From an uncultured Gammaproteobacteria bacterium (GTDB lineage Bacteria; Patescibacteriota; Patescibacteriia; Magasanikbacterales; JBBTQS01): a stretch of 59,161 nt of DNA. How positions within the stretch are numbered: position 1 is the first letter of the stretch; every line of letters begins with the position of its first letter. Location: contig CAZVGV010000005.1 in NCBI GenBank assembly GCA_964627055.1, positions 1 to 59,161 on the forward strand, written 5' to 3'. Shown one piece after another: positions 624 through 57,974 of the stretch. The notes beneath the pieces were generated by a model. It was not told where the DNA came from and searched no databases. It was given only the letters and a program-made list of their open reading frames with translations. The position numbers were made by a program, and so were the translations under genes.

Positions 624-1475
624 ATGAAAACGGAGAAAGAGAATAAGGATCGTTTGACTATTACGCTTTCGCCTTCGATTCTCAAGAAGGTTGATTCCCT
701 AATTGATGGGAAGGCGGTGCGCAATCGATCTCATGCGATTGAAACCATTCTCAGTCAGCATATTCTCTCCCGTGTGACCAAGGTCATTATTCTTGCAGGT
801 GGCAAGGGTGCCAATATGCGCCCGCTCACATACGAGATTCCGAAGGCTATGCTTCCGGTACATGACCGTCCGCTCGTTGAACATTCCATTACTTCTCTTG
901 TGGCTGCAGGATTGCGCGATATCACGATTGTGGTCGGGCATTTGGGCAACAAGGTAGAGCAGGCGTTTGGTGACGGCTCACGATTTGGCGCACGTATTAC
1001 GTATGTGCGGGACCTCGAGGAGTCTGGTACGGCGCAAGCTCTCTCTGCTGCGCGCAAGGTTGTAGGGGACAATCCATTCCTATTGCTTTATGGAGATGTG
1101 CTTGCATCGATCGACTGGTTGTCGCTTATCGACTTCCATGATCAGCAGGAATCACTGCTTACTATGGCAGTGACAACTGTAACAGACACGACGCCATGGG
1201 GAGTCGTTACAATGCAGGGTGCACATATCACCGGACTTGAGCAGCGACATGACGCTCCAGCTGGGAATAGTCATCTCATCAATTCCGGAGTGTATGTGGT
1301 TGATCCAAGTGTACTCACACGCATCACACCAAGCATGAAGAGCTTTGAAGATGAAGTGGTTGCGCCAATGACTGCACGTCATGAGGTTGCTGGGTATCAC
1401 TTCTCTGGTCAATGGTTCGATGTAGGTTCTTCTGCAGAATACGCTCGCGCGCTCAAGGAATGGTCTCCGAGCTGA
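624..1475 (+). CDS. Ribbon-helix-helix (CopG/NikR-like) domain fused to sugar-phosphate nucleotidyltransferase (NTP_transferase) domain
   Basis: N-term RLTITLSPSILKKVDSLIDGKAVRNRSHAIETIL (beta-alpha-alpha RHH); then ILAGGKGANMRPLT..PK, LYGD, WFDVG; ATG 624 chosen because the ORF-track extension overlaps terminator and promoter. Confidence 0.85.
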   Translation: MKTEKENKDRLTITLSPSILKKVDSLIDGKAVRNRSHAIETILSQHILSRVTKVIILAGGKGANMRPLTYEIPKAMLPVHDRPLVEHSITSLVAAGLRDITIVVGHLGNKVEQAFGDGSRFGARITYVRDLEESGTAQALSAARKVVGDNPFLLLYGDVLASIDWLSLIDFHDQQESLLTMAVTTVTDTTPWGVVTMQGAHITGLEQRHDAPAGNSHLINSGVYVVDPSVLTRITPSMKSFEDEVVAPMTARHEVAGYHFSGQWFDVGSSAEYARALKEWSPS

Positions 1476-1565
1476 GACTCTTCTCCCAACCTTCAACCAG
1501 ATATCTGTGCTTGTTCTGGTCGTAGATTGGGGGAAGGGCCTTAGCCCAACTGGTGGTGCTGTAAC

Positions 1566-2576
1566 GTGATGTGTGCACCGCATCTCACGTTGCCGCTTCA
1601 CCCGAAGTGGCCGAACATCGACAACCAAGGTAGGAGAGAACTCGTGCAATCGACTCATGGGGCGCGGTTCAAACCACGCCGAGCAGTGATTACCGACCTC
1701 GATGATTCACTGATCACGAGCCACGCGAGTGGTCGGGATCGGTTTGGGTGGGAGCCCATCGTTGAGGCGTTCGCCGCGTTTGCGGCGAACAACATCAAGC
1801 TCCACATCGTCACGCTCAACGGAGCGCCGTTTGTGGCTGGCATCTGCAATGGCATCAGCCACAAGGCTGCCGAGCACATGCTTGGTGATGTGCACGTCGG
1901 TGAAGGGAACGTGTCGCTCGTCGTGCGGGACAATGGTTCCTGTCGTGAGTGGTGCGAGGTTCCAATTCTGGACCCGCCCCCCATCGAGTGCGAGCTGGAT
2001 CGGGTGCGCGTGCGTCACATCGTGGCGCGAGTTGCACCAGATCTGCGTGTCCGCAGCGTCGGCATGTCGCTGATGGTTTCCTATTCGGTCGAACCGCACC
2101 AGCGGAGTGGCTGGATCGAGGAAATCCAAGAGGCAATCGACGGGGCATCAGAGCTGCAAACGCAGTGGGTGGTGGGTAACGGTGGCCACCCGCACATCAT
2201 CGACATCGTTCCAGCTCATGCTGCGGACAAGGGCAAAGGAATTGTTGCACTTCTCGCGCACGCTGAACGTGTCGGTCAGCCGATCGATCTGTCGGGGAGC
2301 GCATGGTTCGGCGATTCCGATGCAGATATCAAGGCGCTCGAGGAGCTCACGTCTGTGCGACGTCGCTCCGAAGGGAAGGCCATCGGCTTTGTCGCAACGC
2401 ACTCCGGTGCGTCCGCGGCATACATCGCAGCAGTTAGGGCAGCACCCTGCCCCTCCTTCGTCTCCAGTGAGATGCTGGCGGAGCGGGCTGTGCCGCAGAT
2501 GCTTGCTGAGTACGATCGGGTGATCGGGCTCGGCGTCAACAACAATCGCAACGGAAGCTGCTTCAACGTGACGTGA
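1566..2576 (+). CDS. HAD-superfamily hydrolase, subfamily IIB (Cof/sucrose-phosphatase-like); start uncertain
   Basis: Motif I DLDDSL, motif II IVT, motif III DKGKG, motif IV FGDSDAD. Confidence 0.75.
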   Translation: MMCAPHLTLPLHPKWPNIDNQGRRELVQSTHGARFKPRRAVITDLDDSLITSHASGRDRFGWEPIVEAFAAFAANNIKLHIVTLNGAPFVAGICNGISHKAAEHMLGDVHVGEGNVSLVVRDNGSCREWCEVPILDPPPIECELDRVRVRHIVARVAPDLRVRSVGMSLMVSYSVEPHQRSGWIEEIQEAIDGASELQTQWVVGNGGHPHIIDIVPAHAADKGKGIVALLAHAERVGQPIDLSGSAWFGDSDADIKALEELTSVRRRSEGKAIGFVATHSGASAAYIAAVRAAPCPSFVSSEMLAERAVPQMLAEYDRVIGLGVNNNRNGSCFNVT

Positions 2577-2586
2577 TTGGAGGGGA

Positions 2587-2850
2587 GTGATGCAGACGGT
2601 TACCTACGATGATGTGCAGATGGAGCAACTCATGCAGCGAGTGCTCGGGAGGTACTCGGTGTTCAATCGTGCGTTCATCTGCGAGCGTGTCGCCAGCTAC
2701 GATGACGTGCGTGCGAAGCGGCTCTTCCTCGAAGAACTCGCGACGATCGAGGCCAAGGACTGTCCTGCGGACGCGCCGAAGCGCCTCAGCAATCTGATGG
2801 TCTACTACGACCCGAACGATTTCGTCTACTGCGTACAGGAGACGCAGTAG
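2587..2850 (+). CDS. Small hypothetical protein (87 aa)
   Basis: SD-like GGAGGGG just upstream; follows the HAD gene; ends before a terminator. Confidence 0.6.
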   Translation: MMQTVTYDDVQMEQLMQRVLGRYSVFNRAFICERVASYDDVRAKRLFLEELATIEAKDCPADAPKRLSNLMVYYDPNDFVYCVQETQ

Positions 2851-55912: not shown

Positions 55913-55940
55913 AGTAAAAAAAGTATACCACTAGATCTTG

Positions 55941-55974
55941 TAAAAACAACACCTCCCTGGGAGGGAGGTGTTGT
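55941..55974 (-). terminator. Terminator after rnj
   Basis: ACAACACCTCCCT/AGGGAGGTGTTGT 13-bp stem with T5. Confidence 0.75.
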
Positions 55975-55985
55975 GGGAGGTAGTG

Positions 55986-57974
55986 TTATACCTCAATGAG
56001 CACTGGTAGAATCATTGGTCGGCGCTTGGTCTTGGTGTAGAGGTATTCACCCAAATCGTCGCGCAACTTGTTCTTGATGATGTTGGCGTCAGAGCGCGCA
56101 GCTTCGTCACTCTTTTCTACGAGCATGCGGGCGCGTTTGCGGACATCCTCAATGAGGTCCTTCTGTTCCTTGAGATGCACGAACCCGCGAGAAATAATAT
56201 CTGGATTCTGTGTGAGCTTGCCTGTGGTGTGTGACATGGTCACGATCACGACTATCATACCGTCCTCAGCAAGTGCCTGACGATCGCGCAGAACAACCTG
56301 ACCGACATCACCCACACCCAAACCGTCTACGAATACGTATTCGGTATCAACTTTTTCTTTGAGGAGTGCGCCACGGCCATCTGGTCCGAATTCCATTACC
56401 TGTCCGTTGTCTGCTACAAAGATGTTTTCTTCAGGCATCTTCATGGCACGTGCTGCCTTTGCGTTGTAACGCAACATGAAGTGGTTGCCGTGGATAGGTA
56501 CGAAGTACTTGGGGCGCATGAGCTGGAGCATCAACTTGATGTCTTCTGCCTTTGCGTGGCCACCAGAGTGCACGTCCATCATGGTGTAGTTGATGACATT
56601 GGCACCACGACGGAAGAGTACATCCATGAGACGCTGCACGCTGCGCTCATTACCTGGAATCACGGATGAGGAGAAGACTACTGTGTCTCCTGGAATGATC
56701 TTCGCAAAACGGTGTTCGTTGCTTGCAATGCGCATGAGTACTGCTGACTTTTCACCCTGCGCACCGGTGCACATGATAATGACCTTTTCCTTTGGATAAT
56801 CATCGATTTCGTCGATACCAATGATGACGTTCTTCGGTACTTCCATGTACTTGAGCATCTTCATGATCTCGACGTTGGTCTTCATGCTGTAGCCGTCGAT
56901 CGCGAGTTTCTTTCCGAGTTTGGTTGCAATCTCAATAACTTGCTGTACGCGGGAGAGGAGGGACGCGAAGGTGCCGATAATAATGCGTCCTTGAGCTCGT
57001 GCAAAGATCGTTTCGAGCGCCTGGCCGATAGTATGCTCGGAGATCTGATGTCCTTCACAGTTGGCGTTGGTGCTGTCAGAGAGCAACGCGAGTACGCCCT
57101 TGCTTCCGATTTCTGCGAGGCGGCCGAGGTCTGCAGGCTTGTTGTCCACGGGTTGGAAGTCGAACTTCCAGTCACCGGTGTGGATAATAGTTCCTACTGG
57201 CGTGTGTACTGCAACACCCATAGAGTCCGGGATGTTGTGGTTTACGTGGAAGAACTCAACGCGGAAATGACCGAGTTGCAGTGTTTCCTGGAGGGTGATG
57301 GAACGAAGGTTGAGTTCGTATCCACCGAAGTCTTCCTGTCGCTTCTTGATGATCGCGAGTGTAAGAGGAAGACCGTATACTGGTGGATTGCCAAGTTCCG
57401 GAACAATGTGTGGAATACCACCGATGTGATCGTAGTGTCCGTGGGTGATGATGACACCACGCACGTTCTTTTCCTTACCCTTCACATACGAGACGTTCGG
57501 GATAATGTAATCAATACCAGGCATGTCTTCGTCAGGGAACTGGAGTCCCATGTCAACGAAGATAATATCGTTTTTGTATTCAATGAGGGTGCAGTTGCGA
57601 CCAACTTCTTCGAGCCCACCTAATACGATCACACGCACCTTGTCGGTGCCAGATCCGAATGATTGCTCGCGTACAACTTGCGAACGGCCACCCTGAAATC
57701 CATGGGCGATACGATCAGCAAGTGGACGGCCGTTGCCACGAGGGTGTCGGCTTCCATCATGAGGTGCTTGCCGTGGAGCAAGAAGTGGACGACGTCCTTC
57801 GCTTCGGCGCTCAACAGGTGCAGCTGTTTCGATCGTGCGAGCTGGTGCTGGAGTGCTGCTGGCAGCAAGACGCTTTTGTACGGAGTTACGCATCGGGCGA
57901 GCACGCAACCCATGCATGGGCGCGTTGCTTCGATGTCCCATTCTCCGCGGGGAGCTTCCTTCTGTTTGTTGCAT
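55986..57974 (-). CDS. rnj: Ribonuclease J with Arg-rich N-terminal extension
   Basis: GGLEEVGRN, THGHYDHIGG, HTGDWK, DSTNA, HSGGH, VDGLGVG, RRPMILP. Confidence 0.96.
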   Translation of the reverse strand: MQQTEGSSPRRMGHRSNAPMHGLRARPMRNSVQKRLAASSTPAPARTIETAAPVERRSEGRRPLLAPRQAPHDGSRHPRGNGRPLADRIAHGFQGGRSQVVREQSFGSGTDKVRVIVLGGLEEVGRNCTLIEYKNDIIFVDMGLQFPDEDMPGIDYIIPNVSYVKGKEKNVRGVIITHGHYDHIGGIPHIVPELGNPPVYGLPLTLAIIKKRQEDFGGYELNLRSITLQETLQLGHFRVEFFHVNHNIPDSMGVAVHTPVGTIIHTGDWKFDFQPVDNKPADLGRLAEIGSKGVLALLSDSTNANCEGHQISEHTIGQALETIFARAQGRIIIGTFASLLSRVQQVIEIATKLGKKLAIDGYSMKTNVEIMKMLKYMEVPKNVIIGIDEIDDYPKEKVIIMCTGAQGEKSAVLMRIASNEHRFAKIIPGDTVVFSSSVIPGNERSVQRLMDVLFRRGANVINYTMMDVHSGGHAKAEDIKLMLQLMRPKYFVPIHGNHFMLRYNAKAARAMKMPEENIFVADNGQVMEFGPDGRGALLKEKVDTEYVFVDGLGVGDVGQVVLRDRQALAEDGMIVVIVTMSHTTGKLTQNPDIISRGFVHLKEQKDLIEDVRKRARMLVEKSDEAARSDANIIKNKLRDDLGEYLYTKTKRRPMILPVLIEV

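Follow-up and report, generated by a model that had tools for sequence, protein, structure and literature searches.

Introduction

Quadruplet pairing of a −1 U in the mRNA with the initiator tRNA has been described in E. coli, where its effect is weak, and provides a direct precedent for pairing with A37 (Hollerer & Jeschek 2023, PMC10018350). In the Bacteroidia, which are blind to the Shine-Dalgarno (SD) sequence, an extended SD of rpsU goes together with an occluded anti-SD and bS21 autoregulation (Jha 2021, PMC7797042; McNutt 2023, PMC9976891), and the rpsU gene of the lineage studied here resembles theirs. In public records this lineage, a class of the Patescibacteria, appears as Magasanik-, Uhr-, Falkow- and Buchananbacteria. 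We analysed a stretch of 59,161 nt (the window) from an ultra-small Patescibacteria (CPR) bacterium, contig CAZVGV010000005.1 of GCA_964627055.1, positions 1–59,161 of the forward strand. Some four fifths of its genes begin with UAUG and lack an SD site.

Start contexts in the window

Our dicodon gene finder called 53 genes in the window. TATG starts were found in 40, an SD without T at position −1, hereafter T(−1), in 7, and other contexts in 6, including four exceptions already listed in an earlier note on this sequence. That note had counted T(−1) in 42 of 46 native-looking genes, close to our own 40–41 of 46. All but two of the 40 TATG starts (38) were the first ATG of the ORF; those at 33831 (−) and 35773 (+) were set by orthologue alignment. 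The comparison genomes were G001 (same genus) and G002, and syntenic L194 was also used for labels and alignment. TATG starts are given below by coordinates, strand and feature; genomes in brackets have TATG as well, and "earlier label" marks gene names from the earlier note.

623..626, +, first gene after 5S rRNA (G001, aligned)
2993..2996, +, TATG start (G001, G002, aligned position)
3895..3898, +, TATG overlapping the upstream gene's end (G001, G002)
4646..4649, +, TATG 4 nt past the upstream stop (G001, G002)
5283..5286, +, TATG start (G001, G002)
7701..7704, +, TATG start (G001)
9212..9215, −, TATG start (G001, G002)
9282..9285, +, TATG start (G001, G002)
11938..11941, +, TATG start (G001)
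13965..13968, −, rnc, earlier label (G001)
14444..14447, −, TATG start (G001, G002)
17358..17361, −, gyrA, earlier label, 835 aa (G001); 555 related stretches among the genome contigs searched
17599..17602, −, TATG start (G001)
18196..18199, −, TATG start (G001, G002)
18384..18387, +, rpsA (bS1), Pfam S1 x4 (G001, G002)
19567..19570, +, ftsH, earlier label (G001, G002)
21486..21489, +, candidate TATG start at the ORF's first ATG; G001 also shares a TGTG further upstream, at 21445
24202..24205, +, TATG start (G001)
25768..25771, −, HMA copper-chaperone-like gene, Pfam label from syntenic L194 (G001)
26765..26768, −, DsbD/cupredoxin-like gene, label from L194 (G001)
29041..29044, −, P-type ATPase, label from L194 (G001)
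29465..29468, +, thrS, label from L194 (G001)
31270..31273, +, miaA, label from L194 (G001)
32225..32228, +, TATG start (G001)
33335..33338, −, rpe, label from L194 (G001)
33829..33832, −, rpiB, not the first ATG; the alignment begins there (G001, G002)
35772..35775, +, ileS, third ATG (G001, G002, L194)
38696..38699, +, pepA (G001, G002)
40153..40156, +, ruvA (G001, G002)
40746..40749, +, FemAB-like gene (G001)
41891..41894, +, TATG start (G001)
43909..43912, −, TATG, first ATG, candidate start from the sequence
45822..45825, −, TATG start (G001)
49411..49414, −, TATG start (G001, G002)
50549..50552, −, TATG start (G001, G002)
51666..51669, −, TATG start (G001)
53092..53095, −, TATG start (G001, G002)
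54841..54844, −, TATG start (G001)
55910..55913, −, trpS, earlier label, TGGTATACT promoter box near upstream (G002)
57972..57975, −, rnj, earlier label (G001)

The four exceptions carry C or A at −1.

22477..22480, +, CATG (ATG at 22478), T2SSE/PilB-like ATPase; assigned by context and Pfam
29309..29312, −, CATG (29311), CsoR-like repressor; CATG also in G001
42256..42259, +, AATG (42257), 190-aa gene; the syntenic G001/G002 stretches compared contain no homologue
48268..48271, −, AATG (48270), DUF4012 protein; AATG in G001, CATG in G002; TGGTATACT box 18 nt upstream

Selection on U at −1 across the genome

We extended the analysis to the 877-kb genome, taking 781 genes with the first ATG of each ORF as the only, mechanical start rule. 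T(−1) was present at 71.6% of these ATGs, against a background in the same genome of 13.5% at internal in-frame ATGs, 18.0% at out-of-frame ATGs and 14.6% at all ATGs. In two subsets that leave no choice of start, the frequency was 76.6% (in-frame stop at most 30 nt upstream; n = 376, binomial p = 1.6e-97) and 78.2% (no second candidate within 20 codons; n = 174). As a control, 50 kb of E. coli K-12 run through the same pipeline gave 32%. The two-class start signature proposed in the earlier note is real, and biased start choice, which its author had feared, is excluded as the cause. The start logo contained 0.72 bit at −1 (T 0.72, C 0.14, A 0.07, G 0.07) and 0.15 bit at −2 (C/G), with an upstream T content of about 25–30%; −1 was the only position of real information content. 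Between −12 and −6 G was not enriched genome-wide, and no SD signal was seen, in support of the view that native genes lack an SD. Within genes, T precedes 14% of in-frame ATGs, compared with 26% of ATH codons. Compared with gene interiors, the start regions of native genes have a higher AT content and less structure, and start windows fold less stably (−8.8 vs −12.9 kcal/mol).

Conservation between species was examined in 469 ATG starts aligned in genome-wide orthologue pairs with the same-genus genome. T(−1) was retained in 98.3% of them; identity in the same pairs was 56–69% at −2 to −20 and 63–71% at third codon positions. Of the 46 first starts shared with G001 in the window, 35 were TATG in both genomes, and T(−1) occurred at 15% of later shared ATGs. 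Among non-T starts, 35 of 58 were CATG in both genomes, CATG being the second commonest start context. Apart from AUG itself, U at −1 is the only strongly selected base. These findings support UAUG as the native start context under strong purifying selection, with a −1 U whose conservation is as strict as that of the AUG itself.

Comparison across CPR lineages, a check suggested in the earlier note, revealed the trait throughout the Magasanik-/Uhr-/Falkowbacteria-type class (66% pooled) and patchily elsewhere in the phylum. Across the phylum as a whole, T(−1) ranges from 12% to 73%; G053 and G083 prefer A at −1, and G070 has little T.

Initiator tRNA and the reading of U(−1)

The initiator tRNA, whose position 37 the earlier note had singled out for inspection, carries A37 in this genome. 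Together with 45 others from the class and phylum, this makes 46 initiator tRNAs, and every one of them has both A37 and A38. Without an SD helix placing the 30S subunit, start selection would rely on a four-base interaction in which U(−1)AUG would pair with C34-A35-U36-A37. The U(−1):A37 pair is plausible but unproven.

Alternatively, a pyrimidine at −1, especially U, could be recognised not by A37 but by an initiation factor or the ribosome itself, the candidates being IF3, 16S rRNA and the proteins along the mRNA path at the P and E sites. The ranking of bases at −1, with T ahead of C and both ahead of A and G, agrees with this. CATG is conserved although its C has no Watson-Crick match in A37; a pyrimidine-specific ribosome contact fits this as well as tRNA pairing does. 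A37 is moreover invariant across the phylum-wide range of −1 preference, even in the A-preferring and T-poor genomes, so the two do not covary. The initiator tRNA of the order is odd in other respects, since it has C33 and its anticodon stem contains just two conserved G:C pairs, which hints at altered P-site handling. On the other side, no candidate contact could be pinpointed, C(−1) could be tolerated without being selected, and pairing with A37 has its precedent in E. coli. We regard direct reading by the ribosome or a factor as possible but improbable.

A separate class of SD-led genes

SD and T(−1) avoid each other. Among the 781 first ATGs, 550 had T without SD, 38 SD without T, 9 both and 184 neither (Fisher p = 1.7e-14); G001 shows the same avoidance (odds ratio 8, p = 2.7e-15). 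An SD accompanied 9/559 TATG starts, a lower rate than the 3.9% seen at internal candidate starts. The second class of the earlier note, SD-led, GC-richer and without T(−1), exists genome-wide and comprises 55 genes, about 7% of the total. The note had assigned eight genes of the window to it, and none has T(−1): the −1 base is C at 1566, 6195, 7133, 11852, 33984 and 34821, and A at 2587 and 12902. Most were said to carry an SD, which is clear in five (2587, GGAGGGG; 6195, AAGGAGGTG; 7133, AGGAG; 33984, AAGGAGG; 34821, GGAGGT) and weak in three (1566, 11852, 12902). One native small gene combines both signals and is listed last.

1566..2576, +, GC-rich gene (61% GC); start uncertain (1566 GTG, 1569 ATG, or 1644 GTG behind AGGAG); syntenic G001 homologue 59–63% identical, flanking genes 83–92%
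2579..2592, +, SD and GTG/ATG of an 86–87-aa orphan; no match in the syntenic G001/G002 stretches compared
6182..6197, +, SD, 4-nt spacer and GTG of an NTP-transferase-like gene; G001 lacks an orthologue and has just a 34% match, in a different gene
7123..7135, +, SD, 5-nt spacer and CATG of a DUF218 gene; syntenic G001 homologue 45–48% identical and SD-led (GGAGGT)
11301..11852, −, orphan with CATG behind GGGGG, adjoining tRNA genes
~33881–33909, +, TTGACA-N17-TATGAT, putative promoter of the 33984 gene by sequence motif
33970..33986, +, SD, 7-nt spacer and CATG of a 233-aa orphan; absent from 30 relatives
34811..34823, +, SD, 4-nt spacer and GTG of a 272-aa orphan; absent from 30 relatives and L194
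10737..10755, −, SD TAAGGAGGTGA, 5-nt spacer and TATG; 42-aa Lys/Ala/Pro-rich basic peptide

The earlier note had read SD-led, GC-rich genes as recently acquired, which would make them horizontal imports, still unadapted, from an SD-using, GC-richer donor. Their GC3 is indeed 0.66 vs 0.51 (p = 1e-26), their native-codon score per codon is lower, and 40% have no same-genus homologue, compared with 11% of TATG genes. Their functions are accessory (MFS transporter, VanW, PNP, 2OG oxygenase, DUF218, orphans), the island at 6020–7838 cannot be aligned with G001, and the 33984 and 34821 genes are missing from the 30 relatives. However, 60% (33 genes) have a G001 homologue, at 57% identity vs 86% for TATG genes, and 27 of these 33 are syntenic and 19 retain the SD. 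Their GC3 is still 0.65 where core-protein identity is 86%, that is, composition has not drifted toward the native value. No donor lineage was found. A search of 5.8 billion proteins with the 33984 product yielded only one homologue, which lies in a sister species, again between rpiB and ileS and behind the same SD and promoter. The signature separates newcomers at best in part: 62% of the 124 genes without a same-genus homologue are TATG and only 18% SD-led.

Recent import is therefore rather unlikely as a general account and holds only in part. Some of the genes, e.g., 34821 and 6195, are truly species-specific. As a whole, SD-led genes mostly have the appearance of accessory genes that are resident, evolve fast and resemble cassettes, and not of fresh imports; they probably either derive from a gene pool of another kind or constitute a class with its own mode of translation.

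Transcription starts and artefacts

T(−1) might also mark transcription starts, if most mRNAs were leaderless or nearly so and T preceded the initiating purine. Extended −10 boxes (TGNTAYAMT) do cluster 8–10 nt upstream of ATG (21 of 68 occurrences), and about 10% of TATG genes have a −10-like hexamer 6–10 nt upstream. The overall logo, however, lacks a −10 signal, and T(−1) peaks at 87% for same-strand gaps of 11–40 nt. Operon-internal genes (gap ≤10 nt, n = 277) carry the same T in 74% of cases and a −10 box in only 2%, which argues that T(−1) is not a transcription-start effect; we consider this explanation very improbable. An origin in start choice, base composition or bin contamination, to which the hand-picked starts of the earlier note and a CheckM-type contamination of 2.5% might point, is practically inconceivable and was rejected on the mechanical and choice-free frequencies (72–78%), the upstream T content, the E. 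coli control, the conservation across species (98%) and the embedding of 45 of the 55 SD genes among TATG genes on the same contigs.

Anti-SD, bS21 and the mode of initiation

The assembly itself contains no 16S rRNA gene. In relatives of the same family and the same order, the 16S gene terminates in GGAUCACCUCCUUUCU, so the anti-SD, which the earlier note had suggested inspecting, is retained there. An extended SD of rpsU (bS21) is conserved across the class: its upstream region pairs with the 16S tail at −18.3 kcal/mol in this genome and at a median of −16.6 kcal/mol in 30 genomes of the class, whereas 938 genes other than rpsU gave −2.4 (p = 9e-15). From this rpsU signature by itself, we infer that the anti-SD may be occluded in this lineage. 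The genome also encodes bS1 (rpsA; 375 aa, four S1 domains).

Taken together, we consider it on balance probable that UAUG is the native start signal, read through four bases of the initiator tRNA, with the anti-SD kept for a few genes and a separate SD-led class beside them. The lineage would thus retain the anti-SD of its 16S rRNA and use it for few genes, of which rpsU would be the best example.

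A thymine precedes the start codon of most native genes

Genes of the study genome G000 (877,580 bp in 35 contigs, about 51% GC, 96% complete) were called with our own dicodon gene finder, which returned 809 ORFs covering 93% of the genome, and starts were assigned by purely mechanical rules. In public records, its 835-aa gyrase-like protein is closest to proteins from MAGs labelled Candidatus Magasanikbacteria, Uhrbacteria, Falkowbacteria, Buchananbacteria, or "Patescibacteria group", which places G000 in that class of CPR/Patescibacteria. The window corresponds to contig C5:1-59161.

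When the first ATG of each ORF was taken as the start, T occupied position −1, directly before the start codon, in 71.6% of 781 genes, compared with 13.5% of internal in-frame ATGs, 18.0% of out-of-frame ATGs, and 14.6% of all ATGs. The frequency was 76.6% for starts with an in-frame stop at most 30 nt upstream (n = 376, p = 1.6e-97) and 78.2% for starts without another candidate within 20 codons (n = 174). The identical pipeline gave 32% T(−1) on 50 kb of Escherichia coli K-12. In the start logo, position −1 carried 0.72 bit (T 0.72, C 0.14, A 0.07, G 0.07) and position −2 carried 0.15 bit (C/G), with slight A/T enrichment from −15 to −5; no purine-rich Shine-Dalgarno (SD) signal or G enrichment was seen in this logo of G000 first ATGs. 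The preference at −2 was not retained as a signal: it becomes A in AT-rich relatives, is 69% conserved, and is probably compositional.

Among the 53 genes of the window, 40 started with TATG, 7 were SD-led without T(−1), and 6 fell into neither group. An earlier note had described T(−1) as the mark of native starts and SD-led starts as that of recently acquired genes, and its counts in the window were essentially right; its four exceptions (CATG, CATG, AATG, and AATG) lie within the 6 remaining cases. The eight starts that it listed as orphan all lacked T(−1), and a clear SD was present in five of them. Overall, U(−1) was present in about 80–85% of native genes, without an SD.

Native starts are conserved by selection

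We compared G000 with the whole genome of a same-genus relative, G001 (907,835 bp). In the window, the first shared start candidates were TATG in both genomes in 35 of 46 cases, and several further TATG starts were confirmed by G002, a more distant genome of the same family; only 15% of later shared ATGs had T(−1). Homology shifted several starts to a downstream TATG (ileS, 35773; rpiB, 33831; also 624, 2994, and 9214). A long GTG ORF from 516 on the plus strand is spurious and lies upstream of the true start at 624. First-ATG or SD-based gene callers misplace starts in such genomes, as at ileS, rpiB, and 624 (versus 516 or 588).

In 469 G000–G001 ortholog pairs with the ATG aligned at the start, T(−1) was kept in 98.3%, versus identities of 56–69% at positions −2 to −20 and 63–71% at third codon positions. 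Purifying selection on the −1 base is therefore about as strong as on the AUG itself. With this conservation, the mechanical rules, the choice-free subsets, and the E. coli control, an artefact of start choice or composition was ruled out. T preceded 14% of in-frame internal ATGs versus 26% of ATH codons, a deficit that fits avoidance of spurious UAUG, and start regions were less structured than gene interiors (−8.8 vs −12.9 kcal/mol). We consider it nearly certain that UAUG is the start signal selected in native genes, in a system that does not depend on the SD.

The preference extends beyond G000. Under the first-ATG rule, T(−1) reached 67% in the whole G001 genome, 49–71% in 60–100 kb samples of genus-, family-, and order-level relatives, and 66% in 80 named loci of the class when pooled (n = 938). 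Across 20 genomes of the phylum, it ranged from 12% to 73%, with some lineages preferring A(−1) or using more SD. The trait is a lineage property and no peculiarity of G000.

Promoter proximity does not account for T(−1)

A −10-like hexamer lay 6–10 nt upstream of the start in about 10% of TATG genes. Genome-wide, the extended −10 box TGNTAYAMT peaked 8–10 nt before the ATG, implying that about 10% of genes have leaders of 1–3 nt; from these promoter positions, a near-leaderless subset of that size is likely. Two such promoters lie in the window:

Window 48283-48306, minus strand: extended −10 promoter (TGGTATACT), 8–20 nt upstream of a start codon
Window 55913-55936, minus strand: extended −10 promoter (same form), 8–20 nt upstream of a start codon

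An origin of T(−1) in leaderless transcripts or in the transcription start was rejected for the bulk of genes. A −10 box at a fixed short distance was found in about 10% of genes overall and in only 2% of 277 operon-internal genes (same-strand gap of at most 10 nt), yet 74% of the latter had T(−1); at same-strand gaps of 11–40 nt, the value was 87%. Because operon-internal genes keep T(−1) without a −10 box, it is not a promoter effect. With Deinococcus and Mycobacterium, bacteria rich in leaderless mRNAs (PMC4007540, PMC4633059), G000 probably shares only its near-leaderless subset, whereas most UAUG genes here are operon-internal and lack an adjacent promoter.

SD-led genes form a GC-rich accessory class

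SD and T(−1) were mutually exclusive at first ATGs: 550 genes had T without SD, 9 had both, 184 had neither, and 38 had SD without T (p = 1.7e-14). The 55 SD-only genes had a GC content of 0.575 and a GC3 of 0.659, versus 0.505 and 0.511 for 552 TATG genes (p = 1e-26), and G001 repeated the dichotomy (odds ratio 8, p = 2.7e-15; GC3 0.655 vs 0.547). The SD-only genes were spread over many contigs and 45 of the 55 were flanked by TATG genes, so bin contamination as their source was ruled out. Their products were accessory or orphan proteins (DUF218, NTP transferase, MFS transporter, VanW, purine-nucleoside phosphorylase family, and 2OG-Fe(II) oxygenase), several of them without a Pfam match. The window shows four two-gene SD islets; genome-wide, clustering into islands was non-significant (6 adjacent SD–SD pairs vs 3.6 ± 1.7 expected), and DNA-level synteny with family-level genomes was too insensitive for judging islands.

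The proposal that the signature separates recently acquired genes held only in part. In its favor, GC3 is atypical and 40% of SD-only genes are absent from the same-genus genome; a G001 homologue was present for 60% of SD-only versus 89% of TATG genes, with a median identity of 57% versus 86%. Against it, among the 33 SD-only genes with a G001 homologue, 27 were syntenic and 19 kept an SD of at least 5 nt, with a GC3 of 0.65. As a general rule the proposal failed, since 62% of the 124 genes without a G001 homologue were TATG genes and only 18% were SD-only. Taken together, synteny, retained SD and GC3, and the predominance of TATG among homologue-less genes indicate that the signature belongs to a class of accessory genes that differ in composition, evolve fast, and resemble cassettes.

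Two SD-led orphans of the window, at 33984 and 34821, encode proteins that were not found in any of 30 relatives searched. Among 5.8 billion proteins, 33984 had exactly one homologue (75% identical), from a sister species. There, too, the gene occupies the gap between rpiB and ileS and retains both the AAGGAGG SD and a TTGACA-N17-TATGRT promoter; 34821 has no counterpart at that locus. No closer homologue in a donor lineage was found for 33984, the gene searched in this way, the sister-species copy being its sole match. On these sequence comparisons, the SD-only genes are best described as fast-evolving, cassette-like accessory genes, only in part recent imports, with no donor identifiable from the search with 33984.

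Elsewhere in the window, the stretch 11043-13197 carries two of the orphan ORFs of high GC content between tRNA-Val/Lys and tRNA-Arg genes, one at 11301-11852 and one in the 12435-13016 region, for which either strand may be the coding one. Its counterpart in G001 differs in length and content, as is typical of an integration hot spot.

The anti-SD is retained in relatives and rpsU carries an extended SD

The window holds five tRNA genes and the following structural RNAs:

Window 1-329, plus strand: 3′ end of 23S rRNA, opening the contig
Window 405-513, plus strand: 5S rRNA, following the 23S 3′ end
Window 53170-53578, minus strand: RNase P RNA, bacterial class A (139.9 bits)

Neither the G000 nor the G001 assembly contains a 16S rRNA gene; in G000, the gap is explained by a contig that ends within the rRNA operon. 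The state of the anti-SD (the 16S 3′ tail) was therefore read from relatives: the 16S of 2 same-family and 12 same-order genomes ends in GGAUCACCUCCUUUCU. Loss of the anti-SD was rejected on these relatives' 16S, the gene being missing from G000 and G001 themselves. Near position 428300 on the minus strand of contig 1 of G002 (stretch 428100-429800), the 16S departs from the conserved 3′ sequence directly after GAAGTCGTAA. No anti-SD tail was recovered there; insertions and introns are common in the rRNA genes of CPR bacteria, and the break may be one of these.

Parcubacteria without an anti-SD motif have been described (Tsurumaki et al. 2022, PMC9297842). Both are CPR bacteria with SD-independent initiation; the relatives of G000, in contrast, keep CACCUCCUUUC (CCUCC present), and SD-led genes exist, so that G000 does not belong to that anti-SD-less group. 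An SD of at least 5 nt occurred at only 1.6% of TATG starts, compared with 3.9% of internal candidates, and the median pairing energy to the 16S tail at ordinary G000 genes was −2.9 kcal/mol.

The gene for ribosomal protein bS21 departs from this pattern:

G000 contig C23:9287-9548, start at C23:9309, plus strand: rpsU (bS21, 80 aa), with Pfam Ribosomal_S21 and PDB bS21 matches

It is a native TATG gene with a strong SD; its upstream sequence, GGAAAGUGAGGUGA, pairs with the 16S tail at −18.3 kcal/mol. In 30 genomes of the class, pairing of the rpsU upstream region with a 15-nt 16S tail had a median of −16.6 kcal/mol (87% at or below −8), versus −2.4 kcal/mol for 938 other genes (p = 9e-15); the extended SD was present in about 26 of the 30, and 11 of the 30 rpsU genes started with GTG. 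The bS21 proteins of the class share a conserved C-terminal motif, read from alignment blocks as approximately [RK]E[YW]L+K.GKL.EE; it includes an aromatic residue, and the tail is acidic.

In Bacteroidia, bS21, bS18, and bS6 sequester the anti-SD, and the translation of rpsU falls to ribosomes that lack bS21 (PMC7797042, PMC9976891, PMC13000453); these SD-blind bacteria autoregulate rpsU (Jha et al. 2021, PMC7797042; McNutt et al. 2023, PMC9976891). The Bacteroidia-type bS21 C-terminus is less basic and has an aromatic residue that is conserved, Tyr54 in F. johnsoniae, of which the aromatic residue found here is at most a candidate counterpart. The lineage of G000 and Bacteroidia have in common a retained anti-SD, an SD that is rare or depleted at native starts, weakly structured start regions, and a class-wide extended rpsU SD pairing at −16 to −21 kcal/mol with the 16S tail. 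They differ in phylum and in start context, which is U(−1) here and upstream adenines in Bacteroidia: adenines at −3 and −6 did not define starts in G000, A reaching only 0.24–0.35 at −3 to −14. They also differ in that about 7% of genes here, GC-rich and accessory, have an SD, whereas Flavobacteriales typically have one such gene. The extended rpsU SD suggests that bS21-gated use of the anti-SD, with sequestration putative here, is not confined to Bacteroidota.

Two further sites were noted. At 10611-10755 on the minus strand of the window, an extremely basic 42-aa peptide rich in Lys, Ala, and Pro (MPAKKKAAPKRK...) starts with a perfect 11-nt SD (TAAGGAGGTGA), a 5-nt spacer, and TATG. The surrounding region is AT-rich, and the gene has promoter-like boxes of its own and no Pfam match; along with rpsU, it belongs to a small number of native genes whose SD is extended. 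At C6:3172, on the minus strand of another G000 contig, the genome's strongest SD-like pairing (−21.3 kcal/mol, AGAGAGGGGGUGA) precedes a TATG-started 128-aa protein; this small membrane protein has a signal peptide and transmembrane helices and is 90% conserved in G001.

How the −1 base may be read

In E. coli, mRNA U(−1) pairs with A37 of tRNA-fMet in a quadruplet interaction (Hollerer & Jeschek 2023, PMC10018350), and a chloroplast case is attributed there to Esposito et al. On SD-led mRNAs of E. coli, the effect amounts to a boost that is modest and statistical (PMC10018350). The initiator tRNA of G000 was located on another contig:

G000 contig C1:81271-81344, plus strand: initiator tRNA with C1xA72 mismatch and anticodon loop CCCAUAA (C33, A37, A38)

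Position 37, the base on which the earlier note's pairing proposal depends, is thus A in G000, and a U(−1):A37 pair is possible. A37 was present in all 45 other initiator tRNAs examined in the class and phylum, without variation even where a genome favors A(−1) or has little T(−1). The anticodon stem has only two conserved G:C pairs by the loop (30:40 and 31:39), with A29:U41. C33 replaces the near-universal U33 in G000 and occurs in about 18 of 29 class initiator tRNAs by our own count. As the cause of T(−1), C33 was rejected: C33 and U33 both occur in the class (about 18 vs 11 of the listed loops, own count), across the phylum they track T(−1) only loosely, in a relation that phylogeny confounds, and position 33 faces +4, where the logo shows no signal. 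Ribosomal protein bS1 is present in G000 with four S1 domains.

U is favored at −1 of true starts and the initiator tRNA has A37 both here and in E. coli; in G000, unlike E. coli, U(−1) marks about 80–85% of native genes, is conserved like the AUG, and stands where there is no SD, and the pairing is putative. The order of preference at −1 was U, then C, then A and G. Non-T starts were mostly CATG, with G almost absent, and 35 of 58 were CATG in both G000 and G001. Such a conserved second choice is not predicted by A37 pairing, and it speaks for the main rival explanation, direct contact of the −1 base with the ribosome or a factor. Weighing these observations, we judge the chances that UAUG is read through A37 pairing to be about even.

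Implications for start selection in Patescibacteria

The observation in the window was thus confirmed, and it extends to the whole genome and to the class, with selection shown directly; the interpretation given to it found partial support. Closest among known systems are quadruplet initiator pairing, weak in E. coli, and the SD-blind Bacteroidia with rpsU autoregulation, and the system described here is a variant of both. In the literature open to our search, no paper was found that reports such features for Patescibacteria.

A joint reading of these lines of analysis, which we put forward as tentative and rather unlikely to hold in full, is that the class independently reached the Bacteroidia solution with a different start signal, combining a hidden anti-SD, UAUG, and a bS21-free channel. 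In standard ribosomes, bS21 would cover the anti-SD, and starts would be selected by UAUG, in effect a start codon of four bases that the loop of the initiator tRNA reads. In ribosomes lacking bS21, the anti-SD would be exposed, and these would translate rpsU and, as a separate channel, tiny basic proteins and the accessory cassettes that are GC-rich, SD-led, and fast-evolving. If this reading is true, the SD would be the mark of a regulated translational class and not of foreignness.

The SD-led GC-rich class itself calls for caution, as foreign-looking signals need not mean recent transfer. A −1 base that lies outside the start codon and yet is kept as strictly as the AUG, in about 80–85% of genes and throughout a large uncultivated radiation, would make a primary start determinant of what is a weak effect in E. 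coli. The UAUG system would offer a concrete, testable model of how start codons are found in SD-less bacteria.
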